30,039 nt of DNA from Syntrophobacteraceae bacterium (GCA_049509275.1 JBELAB010000001.1:1-30039); one strand, 5' to 3'; counted from the stretch's first letter, positions 14,361 through 19,461 are shown. The notes: generated by a model from the sequence alone, not told the origin. A program made the numbers and translations.

Positions 14361-16079
14361 GTGACAAATCATATGGCAGAACCGATATCTAAAATGAAGC
14401 CAAATAAGTCAAAGACGATTGGCGCTAAGTCCGTAAAGCGTGGCCATGAAAATTTGACCAGGCATTTGGAGCTTCAGATACTCTACGATATCTTTTCTGC
14501 TCTCAACAGTTCACCGCATCTTCAGGATGTTCTAAAGCGCGCGCTTTCAAATATTCTCGGGACCCTTAAGTTCAAGATGGGGGCCCTGTACCTCGTTAAA
14601 GAATCATCGGGTGAAAAGTGGCAGCTCGAGCTTTCGGCCCATCATGGCTTCTCGCCCACCATGCTCAACGGTATCCAGTACCTGACCATGACCTCAGAGA
14701 TGATGGGCAGTTACAGAGATAAGGACCCGATCAGGCGGTTCCCCATCTCAAAGCTTACTTTCGCCGCCCTGCGCGCGCGCACGAAAGACGAGAGAATCGA
14801 TGAAATCATCAGCATCGCTCTTATGTCACACAAAAATGTAGTAGGGCTGCTTTATGTCACCAATGACGGAACATATAAGTTAGGAGCAGGGCATAACGAA
14901 CTTCTAAGGGCCATCGGAAACCAACTCGGGGTTTCCATTCAGAATGCGATGCTCTTCGACTCGGTGGAACGTGCGAAGTGCGAACTGGAGATCAGCTTTG
15001 ACGCCATTCAGGACGCCATTTTCCTGATTGATAACAGGATGCGGATTTATCGAGTGAACCGCACCAGCGAGATGGTTTACGGGCCGAACCTGGTCGGGCA
15101 AAAATACCCTCTGGTACTCTACGGGACCGAGCAGCCCCATGTCGAGTGTCCCATCTGGGCATGCCTGTGGGGTGCTCAGCCCATTCGCCGGGAGGGGCCC
15201 CACCCGCGCTGGGGAGGCTACTACCACTATCAAGCATTTCCTGTGCTCAACGTGGCCGGAGACCTTGAGCGGGTGATCTATTATGAAAAAGACGCCACCC
15301 AAGCCAGGAAACTCGAACAACGCCTTCAGCAGTCGGAGAGGCTCAAGGCGCTGGGGACGCTGGCCGCTGGAATCGCACACGAAATTCGAAACCCGCTGGC
15401 TACCATAAACTTCAATACCCAGATGCTTCGGCGCGAACTGGAATTACGACCGGCCCAACAGGAGATGTTAGACGACGTATCCGAGCAGATACGCAAGATG
15501 GACCGTATCATTCAGCAGGTGCTCCATTTCGCGCGGCCTCGCGATCCTCAGTTCGTGCCCGGCAGCCTGAATGAAGTCGTGCGCCACTGCCTGGATATGT
15601 CCAAGATGTACCTCATAAAGGCCCATGCTGAAGTTTCAGTCGATCTGTGGCCGGACCTGCCCCCCACCGTCATGGATTTCAATCAGATCTGCCAAGTATT
15701 GATGAACCTGATAATCAATTCCATCGAGGCGATGCCGGGGGGCGGAAAATTGAGGATAAGCACTTCATTGCACCAGGAGCAGGGGCAAATCTTTGAGATT
15801 CAGGATTCGGGGACCGGTATCCTGGATGAAGACAAAGGCCGCATCTTCGACCCTTTCTTTACGCGAAAACCTGAAGGGACAGGAATGGGTCTCAGTATAT
15901 CAAGGCAGATAATCGAGAAACACGGTGCTCTTATTGAACTGGCTTCCACTCCGGGACAAGGAACCACTTTCCGGCTGATTTTCCCCATGGGGACCAATCC
16001 GATTCCAGCGGTTTCGGACCAGCCGCCGGAGCCTTCAGCCGAGACGGTTAAGGTTCTGGGCACGAAAAAGAAAAAATAG
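14361..16079 (+). CDS. GAF-PAS sensor histidine kinase (cytoplasmic, no TM helix seen)
   Basis: GAF (LLRAIGNQLGVSIQNAMLF), PAS (FDAIQDAIFLID..IYRVN), H-box AHEIRNPL, N-box NLIINS, DSGTGI, FDPFFTRK, GTGMGL. Start could be GTG 14361 or ATG 14373. Confidence 0.92.
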   Translation: MTNHMAEPISKMKPNKSKTIGAKSVKRGHENLTRHLELQILYDIFSALNSSPHLQDVLKRALSNILGTLKFKMGALYLVKESSGEKWQLELSAHHGFSPTMLNGIQYLTMTSEMMGSYRDKDPIRRFPISKLTFAALRARTKDERIDEIISIALMSHKNVVGLLYVTNDGTYKLGAGHNELLRAIGNQLGVSIQNAMLFDSVERAKCELEISFDAIQDAIFLIDNRMRIYRVNRTSEMVYGPNLVGQKYPLVLYGTEQPHVECPIWACLWGAQPIRREGPHPRWGGYYHYQAFPVLNVAGDLERVIYYEKDATQARKLEQRLQQSERLKALGTLAAGIAHEIRNPLATINFNTQMLRRELELRPAQQEMLDDVSEQIRKMDRIIQQVLHFARPRDPQFVPGSLNEVVRHCLDMSKMYLIKAHAEVSVDLWPDLPPTVMDFNQICQVLMNLIINSIEAMPGGGKLRISTSLHQEQGQIFEIQDSGTGILDEDKGRIFDPFFTRKPEGTGMGLSISRQIIEKHGALIELASTPGQGTTFRLIFPMGTNPIPAVSDQPPEPSAETVKVLGTKKKK

Positions 16080-16118
16080 ATCTGGTTCCGGGCTGGTCAA
16101 CAGAAGTTTTAATAAACA

Positions 16119-16889
16119 TCAACTTAATAAATCATCTTTACGACATCTTAAAAGGGAGTGCCCTTTTGTTTCAAAAGCCTCTTCGTGTATGTCCCGATCA
16201 TAAAACAGGCCCCTGTCCTGTCCATCCAATCCCGCAACACCTCCCGAGAATTCATCGGGCTCAATGCCCGGCTCATTGATCTCGATTCGATCGACAATAG
16301 ATGAAAACCCCATCGAATCGGTAAGTGTCTGGAGAACTAGATCGTGTTCGGCCTCACTTTCAATCGTGCCTTCCAGAAAAACAACTCCCTTCTTCAAGAA
16401 AATCCTGAGTTCTTCCGTGTCGATTCTCTCGTCGGTTTGCAGGTGCTCATAGATCAGATGGACTACCTGTTCATTAGCCAAACCCAGGTATTCATCGGGG
16501 ACCTTTCCGGAAGCGGCCGCTTCATACGTCTGCGGCAAGCTCCTATGCTGCTTTTCATAGTCGCGGGCGCACTCTACGCAAAGTCGCGCCCAAGGTATCA
16601 CCTGCAACCTTTTCGGCGCTATATCGTCCCCACATGACTCGCAAACCCCATAATCGCCCAGCGACATCTTGATCAGCGCCAGATCGATCTGCTCGATTTC
16701 GATTTTCCCATTCTCGTCGAGTTTGTCGTAAGGCTTGGTAATGCTGGCCTTCTGAGCCTCTTCTTCCAACTCTATGGCGGGCTCTTCGAGTTCCTGCCAG
16801 GCCTCCGCAAGCCTGCGAACTCTTTCCAGTATGCTGCTGCGACTCTCGAGAAGCATATTTCTAAGGAAAAGTACTTCTTGCTTGCTCAT
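16119..16889 (-). CDS. DksA/TraR C4 zinc-finger protein fused to a C-terminal BON domain
   Basis: Coiled coil then YGVCESCGDDIAPKRLQVIPWARLCVECA (C83, C86, C104, C107); residues ~138-205 fit BON (KGVVFLEGTIES...GFSSIVDRIEI); SD AGGAGG. Confidence 0.8.
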   Translation of the reverse strand: MSKQEVLFLRNMLLESRSSILERVRRLAEAWQELEEPAIELEEEAQKASITKPYDKLDENGKIEIEQIDLALIKMSLGDYGVCESCGDDIAPKRLQVIPWARLCVECARDYEKQHRSLPQTYEAAASGKVPDEYLGLANEQVVHLIYEHLQTDERIDTEELRIFLKKGVVFLEGTIESEAEHDLVLQTLTDSMGFSSIVDRIEINEPGIEPDEFSGGVAGLDGQDRGLFYDRDIHEEAFETKGHSLLRCRKDDLLS

Positions 16890-16937
16890 TTTTGAATCCT
16901 CCTGCGCACGACAACAAGAAATAACTACATGCGACTA

Positions 16938-16966
16938 AAAATAAGAAGCCTGTAAGAATAATTCAA
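16938..16966 (-). promoter_or_regulatory. Candidate sigma70 promoter for the DksA-BON gene
   Basis: Minus strand TTGAAT-N17-TATTTT, about 50 nt upstream of the ATG. Confidence 0.4.
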
Positions 16967-17277
16967 GTTTATCCGGAAAAATATCGAAATCACTGCGAGA
17001 TCAGGTGTAAACCAGTTGCACTTCGTTGACATCGGCACGGCCGCGTATTGCAGTAATCTCCTCCTGAATTATAGCGCTACCGAGGGTTACAGGAGGACCT
17101 CCAAACCCCCAAAATTGTTGAATTTCCCCACATGCCTCTTGAAAATCGACTTTAGATAACGTATTTATCTCACCACGGAGGGTGGGACCGGACCCATCTG
17201 GACTAATTGGTATCCGCGTGGCGAATCTGTTAAAACACAACTGAACACCGGTTCGGACTGAGTTCCGGGGGAGTTCT

Positions 17278-18225
17278 ATGCTCAGAGGATTGAATCCGGG
17301 CTTTTGGATTAGTCTGATTGCACTCCTATTGATCTGCGGATGCTCAAAAGCATTTGTTAACACTGAGCAGCTCGAGCCCATGAATGATGAAGCACAAGCC
17401 GCGCCTGTTGCCGAGCCGATTCCAAAAGCGCATTATTCCCCGAACGCGCCCGTGAAGCTGGCTGGAAAGGACTTGTCCACCCTAAGCCGCGCAATAACCG
17501 ATAAGGAAGTGCGAAAGCTGCAGCAGAAGGACCCAGACCTGGAATATTACTGTTGCATCGAAATTCTTTGCCGCCTGAACCACAAGGATAAGGAATATAT
17601 ACTCGAAGATATGAAGCTAAAGCATCCCCTGACTGTGCCAAAGAATTTCTCTTCCTACAAGGACTGGTCGCCTCTTCCCGGAAACATTGCAGGCGCGGGC
17701 AAGTTACCCAAGTTAATTCTGCTGGTAAAAAATATCCACTTTCTTGGATGGTATCAGAACGGCAGACTGGTTGACGATACCTATGTGTGCACAGGAAAGA
17801 TGAATACCTGGACGAAAAGGGGACTATACAAAGTGAAGGCAAAAGATCCCAATCACATGTCCACCTACCCGAACGCTTACGGCTATCCCGCTTTCATGCC
17901 TAACGCCCTGCACATCTACGACCGTGTTTGGATTCACACCGGGGATGTGACCGGACCAAATTGCTCGCACGGCTGCATAAACGTTCCGATATTCCCCGCC
18001 GAAAAGCTATATAATTGGACCGACGTCGGGACTGCGGTCCTGATTACGGAATCTTTGAAGGATTTGGGCCGCGACATCAAGACCGCCCGTTTGGACAAAC
18101 TCAATCCGCAAAATGCCCAGCCGGTAAAAGAAAAGGGCAAACAGAATGATCGGCAGAAATCCGCGAATAAAACGCCGAAACAGTTTCCTGGAAACGGCAA
18201 CGAAGTCACAATGGGAGGAATTTAG
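17278..18225 (+). CDS. L,D-transpeptidase (YkuD-family) lipoprotein
   Basis: Signal peptide ending LLICGC (lipobox-like); WIHTG...SHGCINV catalytic motif; Lys/Gln-rich tail. Confidence 0.85.
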   Translation: MLRGLNPGFWISLIALLLICGCSKAFVNTEQLEPMNDEAQAAPVAEPIPKAHYSPNAPVKLAGKDLSTLSRAITDKEVRKLQQKDPDLEYYCCIEILCRLNHKDKEYILEDMKLKHPLTVPKNFSSYKDWSPLPGNIAGAGKLPKLILLVKNIHFLGWYQNGRLVDDTYVCTGKMNTWTKRGLYKVKAKDPNHMSTYPNAYGYPAFMPNALHIYDRVWIHTGDVTGPNCSHGCINVPIFPAEKLYNWTDVGTAVLITESLKDLGRDIKTARLDKLNPQNAQPVKEKGKQNDRQKSANKTPKQFPGNGNEVTMGGI

Positions 18226-18228
18226 AAA

Positions 18229-18897
18229 ATGGAAGTCAGCAGGCGAATTCTTTGGCGTATCGGGCTTTATTTGTTTTTAGGGGCACTTGTTGGCACAGCC
18301 CTATGTTCATGTTCGCTTTTCCAATCACAGATAACTCCACGGCCCCTGACAAAGATCAACCCGCCGCCTGTAATCCCTCCGGAATGCGAGCTTCCCTACC
18401 AATCGGTAGACCTTGATTTTCCTTTATCCCTTATCACCAATCCCAAGATCTACGTATTAAAAGAGGAACGCCGGCTCTGGCTGATCCAAGATAATACGCT
18501 CGTTCGCGAATTTCACGTCGCACTTGGACCCAACCCGAAAGGGGACAAATACTTTAGAGGCGACGGCAGAACCCCCGAGGGAGCATACTTCGTCTGCAGC
18601 AAGAACTCTTCCAGCCAGTTTTATAAGTCGCTTGGAATAAACTACCCCAATCCGCGCAATGCGCAAAACGCCCTTTCATGCGGCATGATTTCCAATAACG
18701 ACTACTGCTTGATCAACCAGGCAAATGACTCCATGAGGCTGCCGCCATCCAACACGGCCCTGGGCGGACAGATATTCATCCATGGAGGCGGCTGCCAAAA
18801 GGACTGGACCCTGGGCTGCATAGCAGTGCAGAACAGCGCCATAGACGAATTGTTCAGCGTAGTCAGGATCGGCACACCCGTTTTTATAATGCCCTGA
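18229..18897 (+). CDS. L,D-transpeptidase/carboxypeptidase-family lipoprotein (YafK/DpaA-like)
   Basis: Lipobox-like LCSC; VLKEERRL, GDK..RGDGRTPEG.Y, LGINYPN, IFIHGG..WTLGCIAV. Confidence 0.85.
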   Translation: MEVSRRILWRIGLYLFLGALVGTALCSCSLFQSQITPRPLTKINPPPVIPPECELPYQSVDLDFPLSLITNPKIYVLKEERRLWLIQDNTLVREFHVALGPNPKGDKYFRGDGRTPEGAYFVCSKNSSSQFYKSLGINYPNPRNAQNALSCGMISNNDYCLINQANDSMRLPPSNTALGGQIFIHGGGCQKDWTLGCIAVQNSAIDELFSVVRIGTPVFIMP

Positions 18898-18966: not shown

Positions 18967-19461
18967 TTAGAACGGTATATCGTCGTCCGGGGCCCCCGTA
19001 TTGGCAGGCAGCTCTTCTATTGCGGAGCGCCCGGCGGGACCGGGGTTTCTCACCTGGTTCTGGCCGCCGGCAGTCCCCTGGCCCTGCCCTTGCCCCTGGC
19101 CTTGTCCCTGGCCCTGGCCTTCCGCGCTCCCAAGCAACTGGATTTCCCTGGCTATAATATCGGTAAAATAGCGTTTCTGACCTTGAGGGTCATCCCACTG
19201 GTTGGTCCGAATGCTGCCTTCAACATAGACCTGCCGGCCTTTGGCCAGATAATTTCCGCAGAATTCAGCCGTTTTGCCGAAGGTAACTATGCGGTGCCAT
19301 TCCGTTCGCTCTTCCCGGTTGCCTTCTGCTCCCGCAGAGACATAATCGTTTGTTGCGAGGTTGAATTTTGCAACTGCGACTCCGTTGGGACTGTATCGGA
19401 TATCCGGGTCAGCCCCCAATCTGCCGACTAATATTACCTTATTGACCGTCCCTTTAGCCAT
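18967..19461 (-). CDS. ssb: Single-stranded DNA-binding protein
   Basis: VNKVILVGRLGADP, TEWHRIV, KGRQVYVEG OB-fold motifs; acidic tip DDDIPF. Confidence 0.97.
   Translation of the reverse strand: MAKGTVNKVILVGRLGADPDIRYSPNGVAVAKFNLATNDYVSAGAEGNREERTEWHRIVTFGKTAEFCGNYLAKGRQVYVEGSIRTNQWDDPQGQKRYFTDIIAREIQLLGSAEGQGQGQGQGQGQGQGTAGGQNQVRNPGPAGRSAIEELPANTGAPDDDIPF
19075..19119 (-). repeat. (Gly-Gln)7-Gly coding repeat in the SSB linker
   Basis: Degenerate 6-nt repeat using mixed codons GGC/GGA/GGG and CAG/CAA. Confidence 0.85.

Follow-up and report, generated by a model that had tools for sequence, protein, structure and literature searches.

The stretch of DNA analysed here, called the window throughout, comprises 30,039 nucleotides (nt) from a Syntrophobacteraceae bacterium (GCA_049509275.1 JBELAB010000001.1:1-30039) and carries on its minus strand, at 16119..16889, a gene for a DksA/TraR-type zinc-finger protein fused to a BON domain. 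This single open reading frame (ORF) consists of an ATG start, 256 codons in total and a stop codon, and an AGGAGG ribosome-binding site (16898..16903, minus strand) can be read directly in the sequence 8 nt 5′ of the ATG. The gene is delimited by the ORF listing, by about 150 clusters of full-length relatives and by contigs from RNA libraries over 16055-16916, and this cover by relatives and RNA-library contigs shows that the ORF is not due to chance. Most of the named relatives in these clusters belong to the Syntrophobacteraceae and many hold a precomputed BON match; database labels call them TraR/DksA regulator or “DnaK suppressor protein”. We regard the fusion as real and conserved: among peat relatives of sulfate reducers it represents a variant, still uncharacterised, of a regulator family that is itself well known, and its function is what we infer.

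All parts of the 256-amino-acid (aa) product are encoded on the minus strand. The protein opens with an antiparallel coiled coil (aa 1-77, 16659..16889), formed by helices 3-35 and 44-77 in AlphaFold2 model 2 and structurally equivalent to residues 32-108 of E. coli DksA. The tip of this coiled coil (aa 36-46, 16752..16784), E40-x-E42-E43-x-A45-Q46, was placed by a MAFFT alignment, a structural offset of +31 and residue counts over 75 fused proteins. A C4 zinc finger (C83, C86, C104 and C107) with a short C-terminal helix follows (aa 78-117, 16539..16658), recognised by Pfam PF01258 and by the invariance of its cysteines, and then a linker (aa 118-137, 16479..16538) that begins at about the C-terminal end of E. 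coli DksA. Residues L118, P119 and P131 of the linker are invariant columns of A1, a 41-member alignment of the family, and its predicted local distance difference test (pLDDT) score is 67-82 in both AlphaFold models. The rest of the protein is a single BON domain of the order alpha-beta-beta-alpha-beta (aa 138-206, 16272..16478), supported by Pfam matches in relatives and by structure matches, and an acidic disordered tail (aa 207-256, 16122..16271) whose L-F-Y-D-x-D...E-E-x-F-E motif occurs in the alignments A1, A3 and A4. The whole protein has a net charge of -26, of which the BON domain accounts for -11 and the tail for -6. No signal peptide or transmembrane segment is apparent in the fusion protein, the highest 19-residue Kyte-Doolittle mean being 0.8.

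The original prediction for this locus had proposed the same succession of coiled coil, finger, linker, BON domain and acidic tail in a protein lacking a signal peptide, and each of these elements is found in place. It had also read the tip as ELEEEA at aa 40-45, where DksA has DxxDxA, a reading borne out by both the MAFFT alignment and a gapless superposition, and the C-terminal region that it took for BON does fold as such, as detailed below. Its view that the architecture is uncharacterised holds as well: we found no published description of a DksA/TraR-BON fusion, and the 2020 census of BON architectures distinguishes twelve clusters, none of them with a DksA/TraR finger.

The DksA-like half and its glutamate-tipped clade

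DksA is the textbook partner of guanosine tetraphosphate (ppGpp) in the stringent response, and to our knowledge most of its DksA/TraR paralogues have no known role. Membership of the fusion in this superfamily is clear from Pfam zf-dskA_traR (PF01258; E 2.4e-15 and 56.7 bits over aa 78-113, where the cut-off is 24.9) and from the finger itself, in which four cysteines with the spacing CxxC-N17-CxxC are invariant throughout A1. The top NCBIfam models for the query are DksA_like, yteA and dksA, all of which match within aa 1-116 and all of which stay well under their curated cut-offs. Solved structures retrieved by sequence were the Agrobacterium DksA-like protein 2KQ9, Pseudomonas DksA2 (4ijj is listed among the matches) and E. 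coli DksA 1TJL.

Model 2, built from a 73-sequence alignment, joins the two helices by an eight-residue tip loop (36-43), and its residues 1-116 superpose on residues 32-147 of chain M of 5VSW, which is DksA bound to RNA polymerase (RNAP), with a Z of 12.4 and a root-mean-square deviation (rmsd) of 1.9 Å over 116/116 residues and not a single gap; superposition on 7KHI chain M, 1TJL and DksA2 is equally good. This superposition and a separate MAFFT alignment with E. coli DksA agree on a register of +31, which sets E40, E43 and A45 against DksA D71, D74 and A76, and puts Q67, I98 and A108 at the DksA ppGpp positions K98, R129 and K139. The tip of the query is therefore ExxExA instead of DxxDxA, with the Ala retained and both Asp changed to Glu, and this state is fixed in 74-75 of the 75 fused proteins, which range from 25 to 90% identity to the query (E40 in 75/75, E42 in 72/75, E43 in 74/75 and A45 in 74/75). 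Since E-x-E-E-x-A is nearly fixed across these 75 proteins, in which it forms the most conserved stretch of the N-terminal half, the tip is clearly under selection; D74 and A76 are functionally critical in the tip of E. coli DksA (PMC4010833). The ppGpp-binding side gives the opposite picture. In E. coli DksA the phosphates of ppGpp at site 2 are gripped by K98, R91 and K139, with R129 as another contact, and K98A or R129A variants retain RNAP binding and lose site-2 ppGpp binding (PMC7676912). Among the fused proteins a basic residue stands at the K98 position in 3/75, at the R129 position in none of the 75 and at the K139 position in 2/75, so that the DksA-side half of the ppGpp pocket is, as judged from the alignment, absent. 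In sum, the fusion protein has the finger and the coiled coil of the superfamily and lacks three marks of a functional DksA, namely the DxxDxA tip, the ppGpp ligands and the equivalog scores.

Set beside E. coli DksA (1TJL, 5VSW, 7KHI), the fusion shares the coiled coil, the C4 finger and the C-terminal helix at 1.9-2.2 Å over 115-116 residues, together with an acidic tip in which an Ala lies two residues past the second acidic residue. It differs in reading E-x-E-E-x-A for D-x-x-D-x-A and Q/I/A for K98/R129/K139, in lacking DksA residues 1-31, and in the 139 C-terminal residues added by linker, BON domain and tail. TraR of the F plasmid (5W1S, 6N57) has the same family finger (E 6e-4), and work by Gopalkrishnan et al. 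from 2017 is said to have found that it acts on RNAP without ppGpp, an independence of the very type that the missing ppGpp ligands of the fusion suggest. However, TraR, at 73 residues, lacks a full two-armed coiled coil, whereas the fusion has the complete hairpin plus a BON domain, and the TraR model TIGR02419 scores 32 on the query against a cut-off of 59.7. Bacillus YteA, YlyA and YocK are DksA/TraR-family proteins, some with C-terminal extensions, that are tied to general stress or sporulation. The model of the YteA group, TIGR02890, matches aa 9-116 of the query (E 5.6e-15), but its score is 55.8 against a cut-off of 134.4, only positions 6-123 of its 159 are matched while 124-159 are unmatched, and the model contains no BON domain. 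A further counterpart is RSP0166 of Rhodobacter sphaeroides, an anaerobically induced short paralogue that has a C4 finger and Glu at the D74-equivalent position and coexists with a canonical DksA, but has only 105 aa and no BON domain (PMC4010833).

The genome to which the window belongs, an 83% complete metagenome-assembled genome (MAG) from peat, holds two more DksA/TraR members. One of them, of 120 aa and encoded on contig C245, has the tip DPTDRA and K/R/K at the ppGpp positions, and is a canonical DksA. A maximum-likelihood tree, its root not established, was computed from 56 N-terminal domains. In it this paralogue clusters with E. coli DksA (support 99/95), and the 38 Glu-tip proteins fall together to one side of a branch with support 94/83; 96% of the bootstrap trees keep the canonical group as a single side. 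The other paralogue, of 133 aa (L002:1231-1632, plus strand, contig C474), is divergent: its tip is D-I-A-D-P-A, both R129 and K139 have Gln as their counterpart, and its branch in the tree is very long (2.09). Short DksA-like genes sampled in the phylum mostly encode DxxDxA; five, all unfused, encode an E-x-E-E-x-A-Q tip together with an IPW motif. These five fall at two points within the fused set of the unrooted tree, a placement that fits a single gain of the BON domain and later losses. Their fingers (L095-L099, from genomes G249, G309, G218, G366 and G263) have the last Cys replaced by Asp or His and are thus of the C3D or C3H type. We take the Glu-tip proteins to be a separate DksA/TraR clade and not degenerate DksA, probably DksA- or TraR-like in action.

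Within the window's genus 38/38 genomes carry the fused gene, as do 8/16 genera of its family, with two to three copies in some genomes; among 300 genomes sampled evenly across the phylum only three others have it (G118, G163 and G221). Named records come from Syntrophobacteraceae, Desulfarculales, Desulfobacterales, one Nitrospinota MAG (L073), whose copy is among the distant members, and the isolate Desulforhabdus sp. TSK, whose copy is 41% identical; the set is biased to close relatives by the use of A1 in the locus search. Atlas clusters are assigned to Thermodesulfobacteriota, with the finger in 100% of members and the BON domain in 31-63%.

The BON domain and the acidic tail

Taken alone, the query scores 18 bits against the Pfam BON model PF04972, under the cut-off of 27 (E 0.0035, aa 146-205). 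Individual Pfam scans of 41 relatives recovered the finger in 41/41 and BON in 39/41 at E≤0.01 (best 4.3e-9), and four relatives are at or above the cut-off (P0125 27.0, P0155 36.5, P0234 35.6 and L087 35.6 bits). The C-terminal 139 residues, searched against 1.8 billion representatives, matched 687 proteins; the best 148 classifiable of these comprise 43 with DksA and BON, 81 with two to six BON domains (Pfam up to 365 bits) and 24 with a single BON, the “single-BON” database entries including many fragments or mis-started fused genes. Proteins with three to six BON domains are retrieved by this half alone at 1e-12 to 1e-17. Both AlphaFold models show the expected elements at pLDDT 86-92 (helices 139-152 and 179-192; strands 161-166, 169-176 and 198-204), and aa 136-212 match OsmY BON1 with a Z of 9.0 (2.3 Å over 74 residues), BonA with 8.9 and DolP with 8.2, followed more weakly by ring domains of the type III secretion system (Z 7.3-7.8) and by Kbp and Kbp-based sensors (Z 6.6-7.3). 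The BON domain is therefore genuine.

OsmY, DolP and BonA offer the closest BON structures, and the nearest relatives of the domain in sequence are proteins with three to six BON domains; unlike the fusion, OsmY, DolP and BonA are exported or periplasmic and less acidic. The multi-BON relatives have a hydrophobic N-terminus in 63/75 cases and a mean charge of -3.6 per BON domain, versus a mean of -10 in the fusion family, where a D-x-R-x-D loop is conserved. Elsewhere in the window's genome, BON domains belong to exported proteins too, namely an OsmY-like protein with a signal peptide and a CpaC-type secretin. The sole characterised BON protein without a signal sequence is Kbp (YgaU) of E. coli (PMC9481166, PMC7806268), which resembles the fusion in joining a single BON domain to a second domain. 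That second domain is LysM in Kbp and DksA here, and the similarity is at the level of the fold only (Z 6.6, 15% identity); a Pfam scan of the query up to E 10 gave no LysM, and the region C-terminal to the BON domain is disordered. The tail (pLDDT 33-47) was modelled undocked, and may serve as a docking element, as the retention of its acidic-aromatic motif L-F-Y-D ... E-E-x-F-E across the family would allow.

This type of BON domain occurs in four of the 300 sampled genomes, three times fused and once in a stand-alone BON-plus-tail protein (in G311). No DksA half lies near that stand-alone gene, nor do the five genomes with unfused Glu-tip proteins hold a matching BON-tail gene at E≤1e-8. 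A “Rosetta-stone” pairing of separate BON-plus-tail and DksA-like genes was considered and is unsupported in this sample. The stand-alone gene (L087:115-591, minus strand) encodes a cytoplasmic protein of 158 aa close to the fused type; it is divergent from an NMD3-like zinc-ribbon gene and adjoins a Glu/Gln-tRNA synthetase gene. Two longer proteins were also seen: P0234 (411 aa) carries a YbaK-type aminoacyl-tRNA editing domain N-terminal to DksA-BON (tRNA_edit-DksA-BON), and P0155 (432 aa) a THUMP domain C-terminal to it. Both are metagenomic singletons on contigs of 3.6-5.2 kb, both additional domains are tRNA-related, and either may be a gene-calling artefact.

Gene neighbourhoods and expression

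In the window the fusion gene converges on a histidine kinase gene at one side and, at the other, diverges from a pair of YkuD-type (L,D-transpeptidase-like) genes (17278..18897, plus strand; Pfam YkuD 1.7e-16 and 2.3e-19). The histidine kinase (14361-16079, plus strand) looks cytoplasmic, has HisKA and HATPase_c domains behind a long N-terminal sensor region and ends 39 nt from the fusion stop codon; it is a neighbour common only to the three closest genomes. Of 75 loci, 26-27 keep the YkuD pair upstream in divergent orientation; the DksA-BON of each of these loci has 61% identity or more, and no other neighbours are conserved among orthologues. Sixteen loci have an intervening peptidase S10 gene, and the other flank becomes yebC-ruvCAB. 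We set aside the YkuD neighbours as regulatory targets, as the adjacency is restricted to these orthologues of at least 61% identity and may be plain synteny. Most of the 388-nt gap between the fusion gene and the first YkuD gene is taken up by an ORF of 126 codons (17001-17381, minus strand), which overlaps the start of the YkuD gene, is covered over 16973-17236 by one low-depth RNA-library contig and is probably no gene. Further along the window, at 18967-19461 on the minus strand, is an SSB gene in whose product a linker with seven Gly-Gln repeats precedes the acidic DDDIPF end.

Distant copies of the fusion (36-50% identical) have another kind of neighbour. In eight Desulfobacterales loci, seven of them Pfam-verified, a gene combining a ribosome hibernation domain, S30AE(HPF), with a cold-shock domain (CSD) lies directly 3′ on the same strand. 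Seven such genes, each just 3′ of DksA-BON in a Desulfobacterales MAG, encode proteins of about 176 aa (L048:2426-2959, L053:3528-4064, L055:2528-3058, L056:5794-6324, L060:5170-5808, L061:5778-6431 and L062:5683-6324, all plus strand). A protein of about 450 aa without a Pfam match is encoded on the same strand directly 5′ of the DksA-BON/HPF-CSD pair in three loci (L057:130-1497, L048:218-1552 and L056:3562-4875, all plus strand). The copy in genome G163 is divergent from a baeRF-family gene (1e-41), aeRF1-like by family match. The ribosome hibernation factor Balon is a distant aeRF1 homologue, and its genes typically reside in stress operons with RaiA, Hsp20 and OsmY (PMC10901736). At L044, Pfam-confirmed Usp and Hsp20 genes lie 5′ of the copy, and ORFs from the BLAST clusters of these two genes turn up again close to several further copies. 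The copy in G118 is flanked by a CBS-pair gene and an SDR gene, and that in G221 is near a protein with four BON domains and an HtrA-like protease.

The stretch of the window occurs in many peat metagenomes, and metatranscriptome contigs from two samples of one peat study extend over 16055-16916 with 99-100% identity. Their ends at 16902-16916 lie 13-27 nt 5′ of the ATG, and cover of the flanks is sparse or absent, which lends weak support to transcription of the gene as a single unit; the libraries may hold DNA, and contigs of this kind can neither fix a transcript start nor prove the silence of a neighbour.

A proposed secondary-channel factor and its alternatives

The reading that we favour, with a probability of roughly 0.55, has four steps and makes the fusion a Glu-tipped factor of the RNAP secondary channel that works independently of ppGpp, serves in stress or growth arrest and receives its input through the BON domain and tail. 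Given the fold, the DksA-like arm length and the conservation of the tip, the 33/34-residue coiled coil would enter the secondary channel as in DksA, and E43 and A45 would come near the active site and trigger loop. As K98, R129 and K139 are Q, I and A here, ppGpp would not be needed at the DksA-RNAP interface (site 2). The presence of a canonical paralogue and the gene neighbourhoods of the distant copies suggest that the fusion supplements the housekeeping DksA and does not replace it, and that the wider family may be used in stress or growth arrest alongside ribosome hibernation factors. The BON domain and tail, a unit that sets in where the C-terminal helix of DksA ends, would sit at the rim of the channel, on the outside, and could provide a regulatory input in place of ppGpp. 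More speculatively, this input would come by a protein partner, self-association or cation binding more plausibly than by lipid. Self-association or partner binding is about as possible as K+ binding of the Kbp type, by analogy with the ring-building domains with which the fold is shared.

Several observations weigh against this reading. For every member of the family RNAP binding is something that we infer from structure and conservation, and the tip on which much depends has a pLDDT of only 57-68 in model 2. The DksA equivalogs TIGR02420, NF033459 and NF008045 are not reached (69.4 vs 105, 53.7 vs 115.5 and 30.5 vs 289). The D74E change kills the function of E. coli DksA, and RSP0166, with its Glu in the motif, fails to complement an E. 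coli dksA mutant; on the other hand, Rhodobacter DksA withstands the corresponding D80E exchange, which makes the effect context-dependent (PMC4010833). As regards stress, the surroundings of the gene in the window give no sign of such a role, its orthologue group lies beside YkuD, peptidase S10 and ruvCAB and not beside stress genes, and the link to stress islands comes from paralogous or distant copies. A search for sigma-54 promoters (TGGCAC-N5-TTGCW, at most two mismatches) gave six matches in the window, where 13.6 would be expected, but no match on the gene strand in 16890-17277, and a sigma-70/terminator scan 5′ of the gene returned nothing convincing; a weak TTGAAT-17-TATTTT, seen by eye at 16966-16938, is under the scan threshold.

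Among the alternatives, the one that survives best, unlikely as we consider it, denies the protein any role at RNAP: the DksA-like half would have lost its function or become a zinc or redox scaffold, and the BON domain and tail would act as a stress protectant, as a chaperone or on hibernating ribosomes. The inactivation of E. coli DksA by Glu at the tip agrees with this, as does the case of RSP0166, for which loss of DksA function was suggested (PMC4010833), and so do the naming of OsmY, the top structural match of the BON domain, as a molecular chaperone by NCBIfam, the ribosome hibernation factors and Hsp20 adjoining distant copies and the existence in G311 of a BON-plus-tail protein devoid of a DksA half. 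Yet the most strongly conserved N-terminal element in the 75 proteins is precisely the tip, which is hard to explain without a tip function, the whole DksA geometry is kept to 1.9 Å with the arm length included, and the unfused Glu-tip proteins imply that the N-terminal half functions alone.

Rather less probable again is a gating by cations as in Kbp, with the BON domain binding K+ or sensing ionic strength and switching the DksA half during osmotic or dormancy-related changes in K+. Kbp, itself a signal-less BON protein, holds K+ by six backbone carbonyls of its BON domain, although it is LysM that stabilises the K+-bound state (PMC9481166), a domain that the fusion protein does not have. 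The matches of the fusion BON to Kbp and Kbp-based sensors, its strong acidity and the conserved D-x-R-x-D loop speak for such gating, but Kbp is a weaker match than OsmY, BonA and DolP (Z 8.2-9.0), identity to it is 15-16%, the query has no match to it at the sequence level, and sites made of backbone carbonyls are not readable from sequence.

Tethering to the membrane, whereby a phospholipid-binding BON domain would hold the factor at the inner membrane face until its release, is very improbable: BON was originally proposed to bind lipid, DolP BON2 binds anionic phospholipid (PMC7806268) and the divergent genes conserved next to the fusion in the window's lineage encode YkuD-type cell-wall enzymes, but BON is not a general lipid binder, lipid binding by DolP depends on W127 in an extended helix alpha1 and phosphatidylglycerol may be repelled by the negative alpha1 that DolP BON1 has (PMC7806268), whereas the fusion has a strongly acidic BON domain (-11) with no Trp in alpha1 and no hydrophobic segment, so that membrane binding is unlikely and lipid the least likely input.

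The original prediction of an RNAP-binding factor gated by a membrane, an ion or oligomerisation thus fares differently in its parts, the RNAP part being upheld indirectly by the 1.9 Å superposition, the arm length and the tip, and the membrane gate being disfavoured by the acidic BON domain. Beyond what it foresaw are the loss of the ppGpp ligands, the Glu-tip clade with its unfused members, the retention of a canonical DksA, and the hibernation and stress links of the distant copies.

The finding defines a coherent clade of paralogues in which three Glu and one Ala replace the DxxDxA tip and the ppGpp pocket is without its DksA half, and most members of which carry a BON domain in the cytoplasm, a setting where only Kbp has been characterised so far. 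If these proteins bind RNAP, they would be a natural experiment on control of secondary-channel factors by signals other than ppGpp and on cytoplasmic BON sensing, and if the sensor reading is true, this would be the first defined job for a cytoplasmic BON domain other than that of Kbp; if they do not bind RNAP, the strong conservation of the tip needs another explanation. A broader proposal, doubtful at present, is that the Glu-tip DksA-BON proteins form a ppGpp-independent class in which the cytoplasmic BON domain and tail sense cations, the state of the cytoplasm or a hibernation-linked partner, and so may tie shutdown or protection of RNAP to the hibernation of ribosomes, both in anaerobic Desulfobacterota and in further soil phyla. 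The recurrent pairing of distant copies with HPF-CSD and an aeRF1-like gene suggests a joint shutdown of transcription and ribosome hibernation in slow-growing peat anaerobes, organisms that are important in carbon and sulfur cycling and hard to study genetically.

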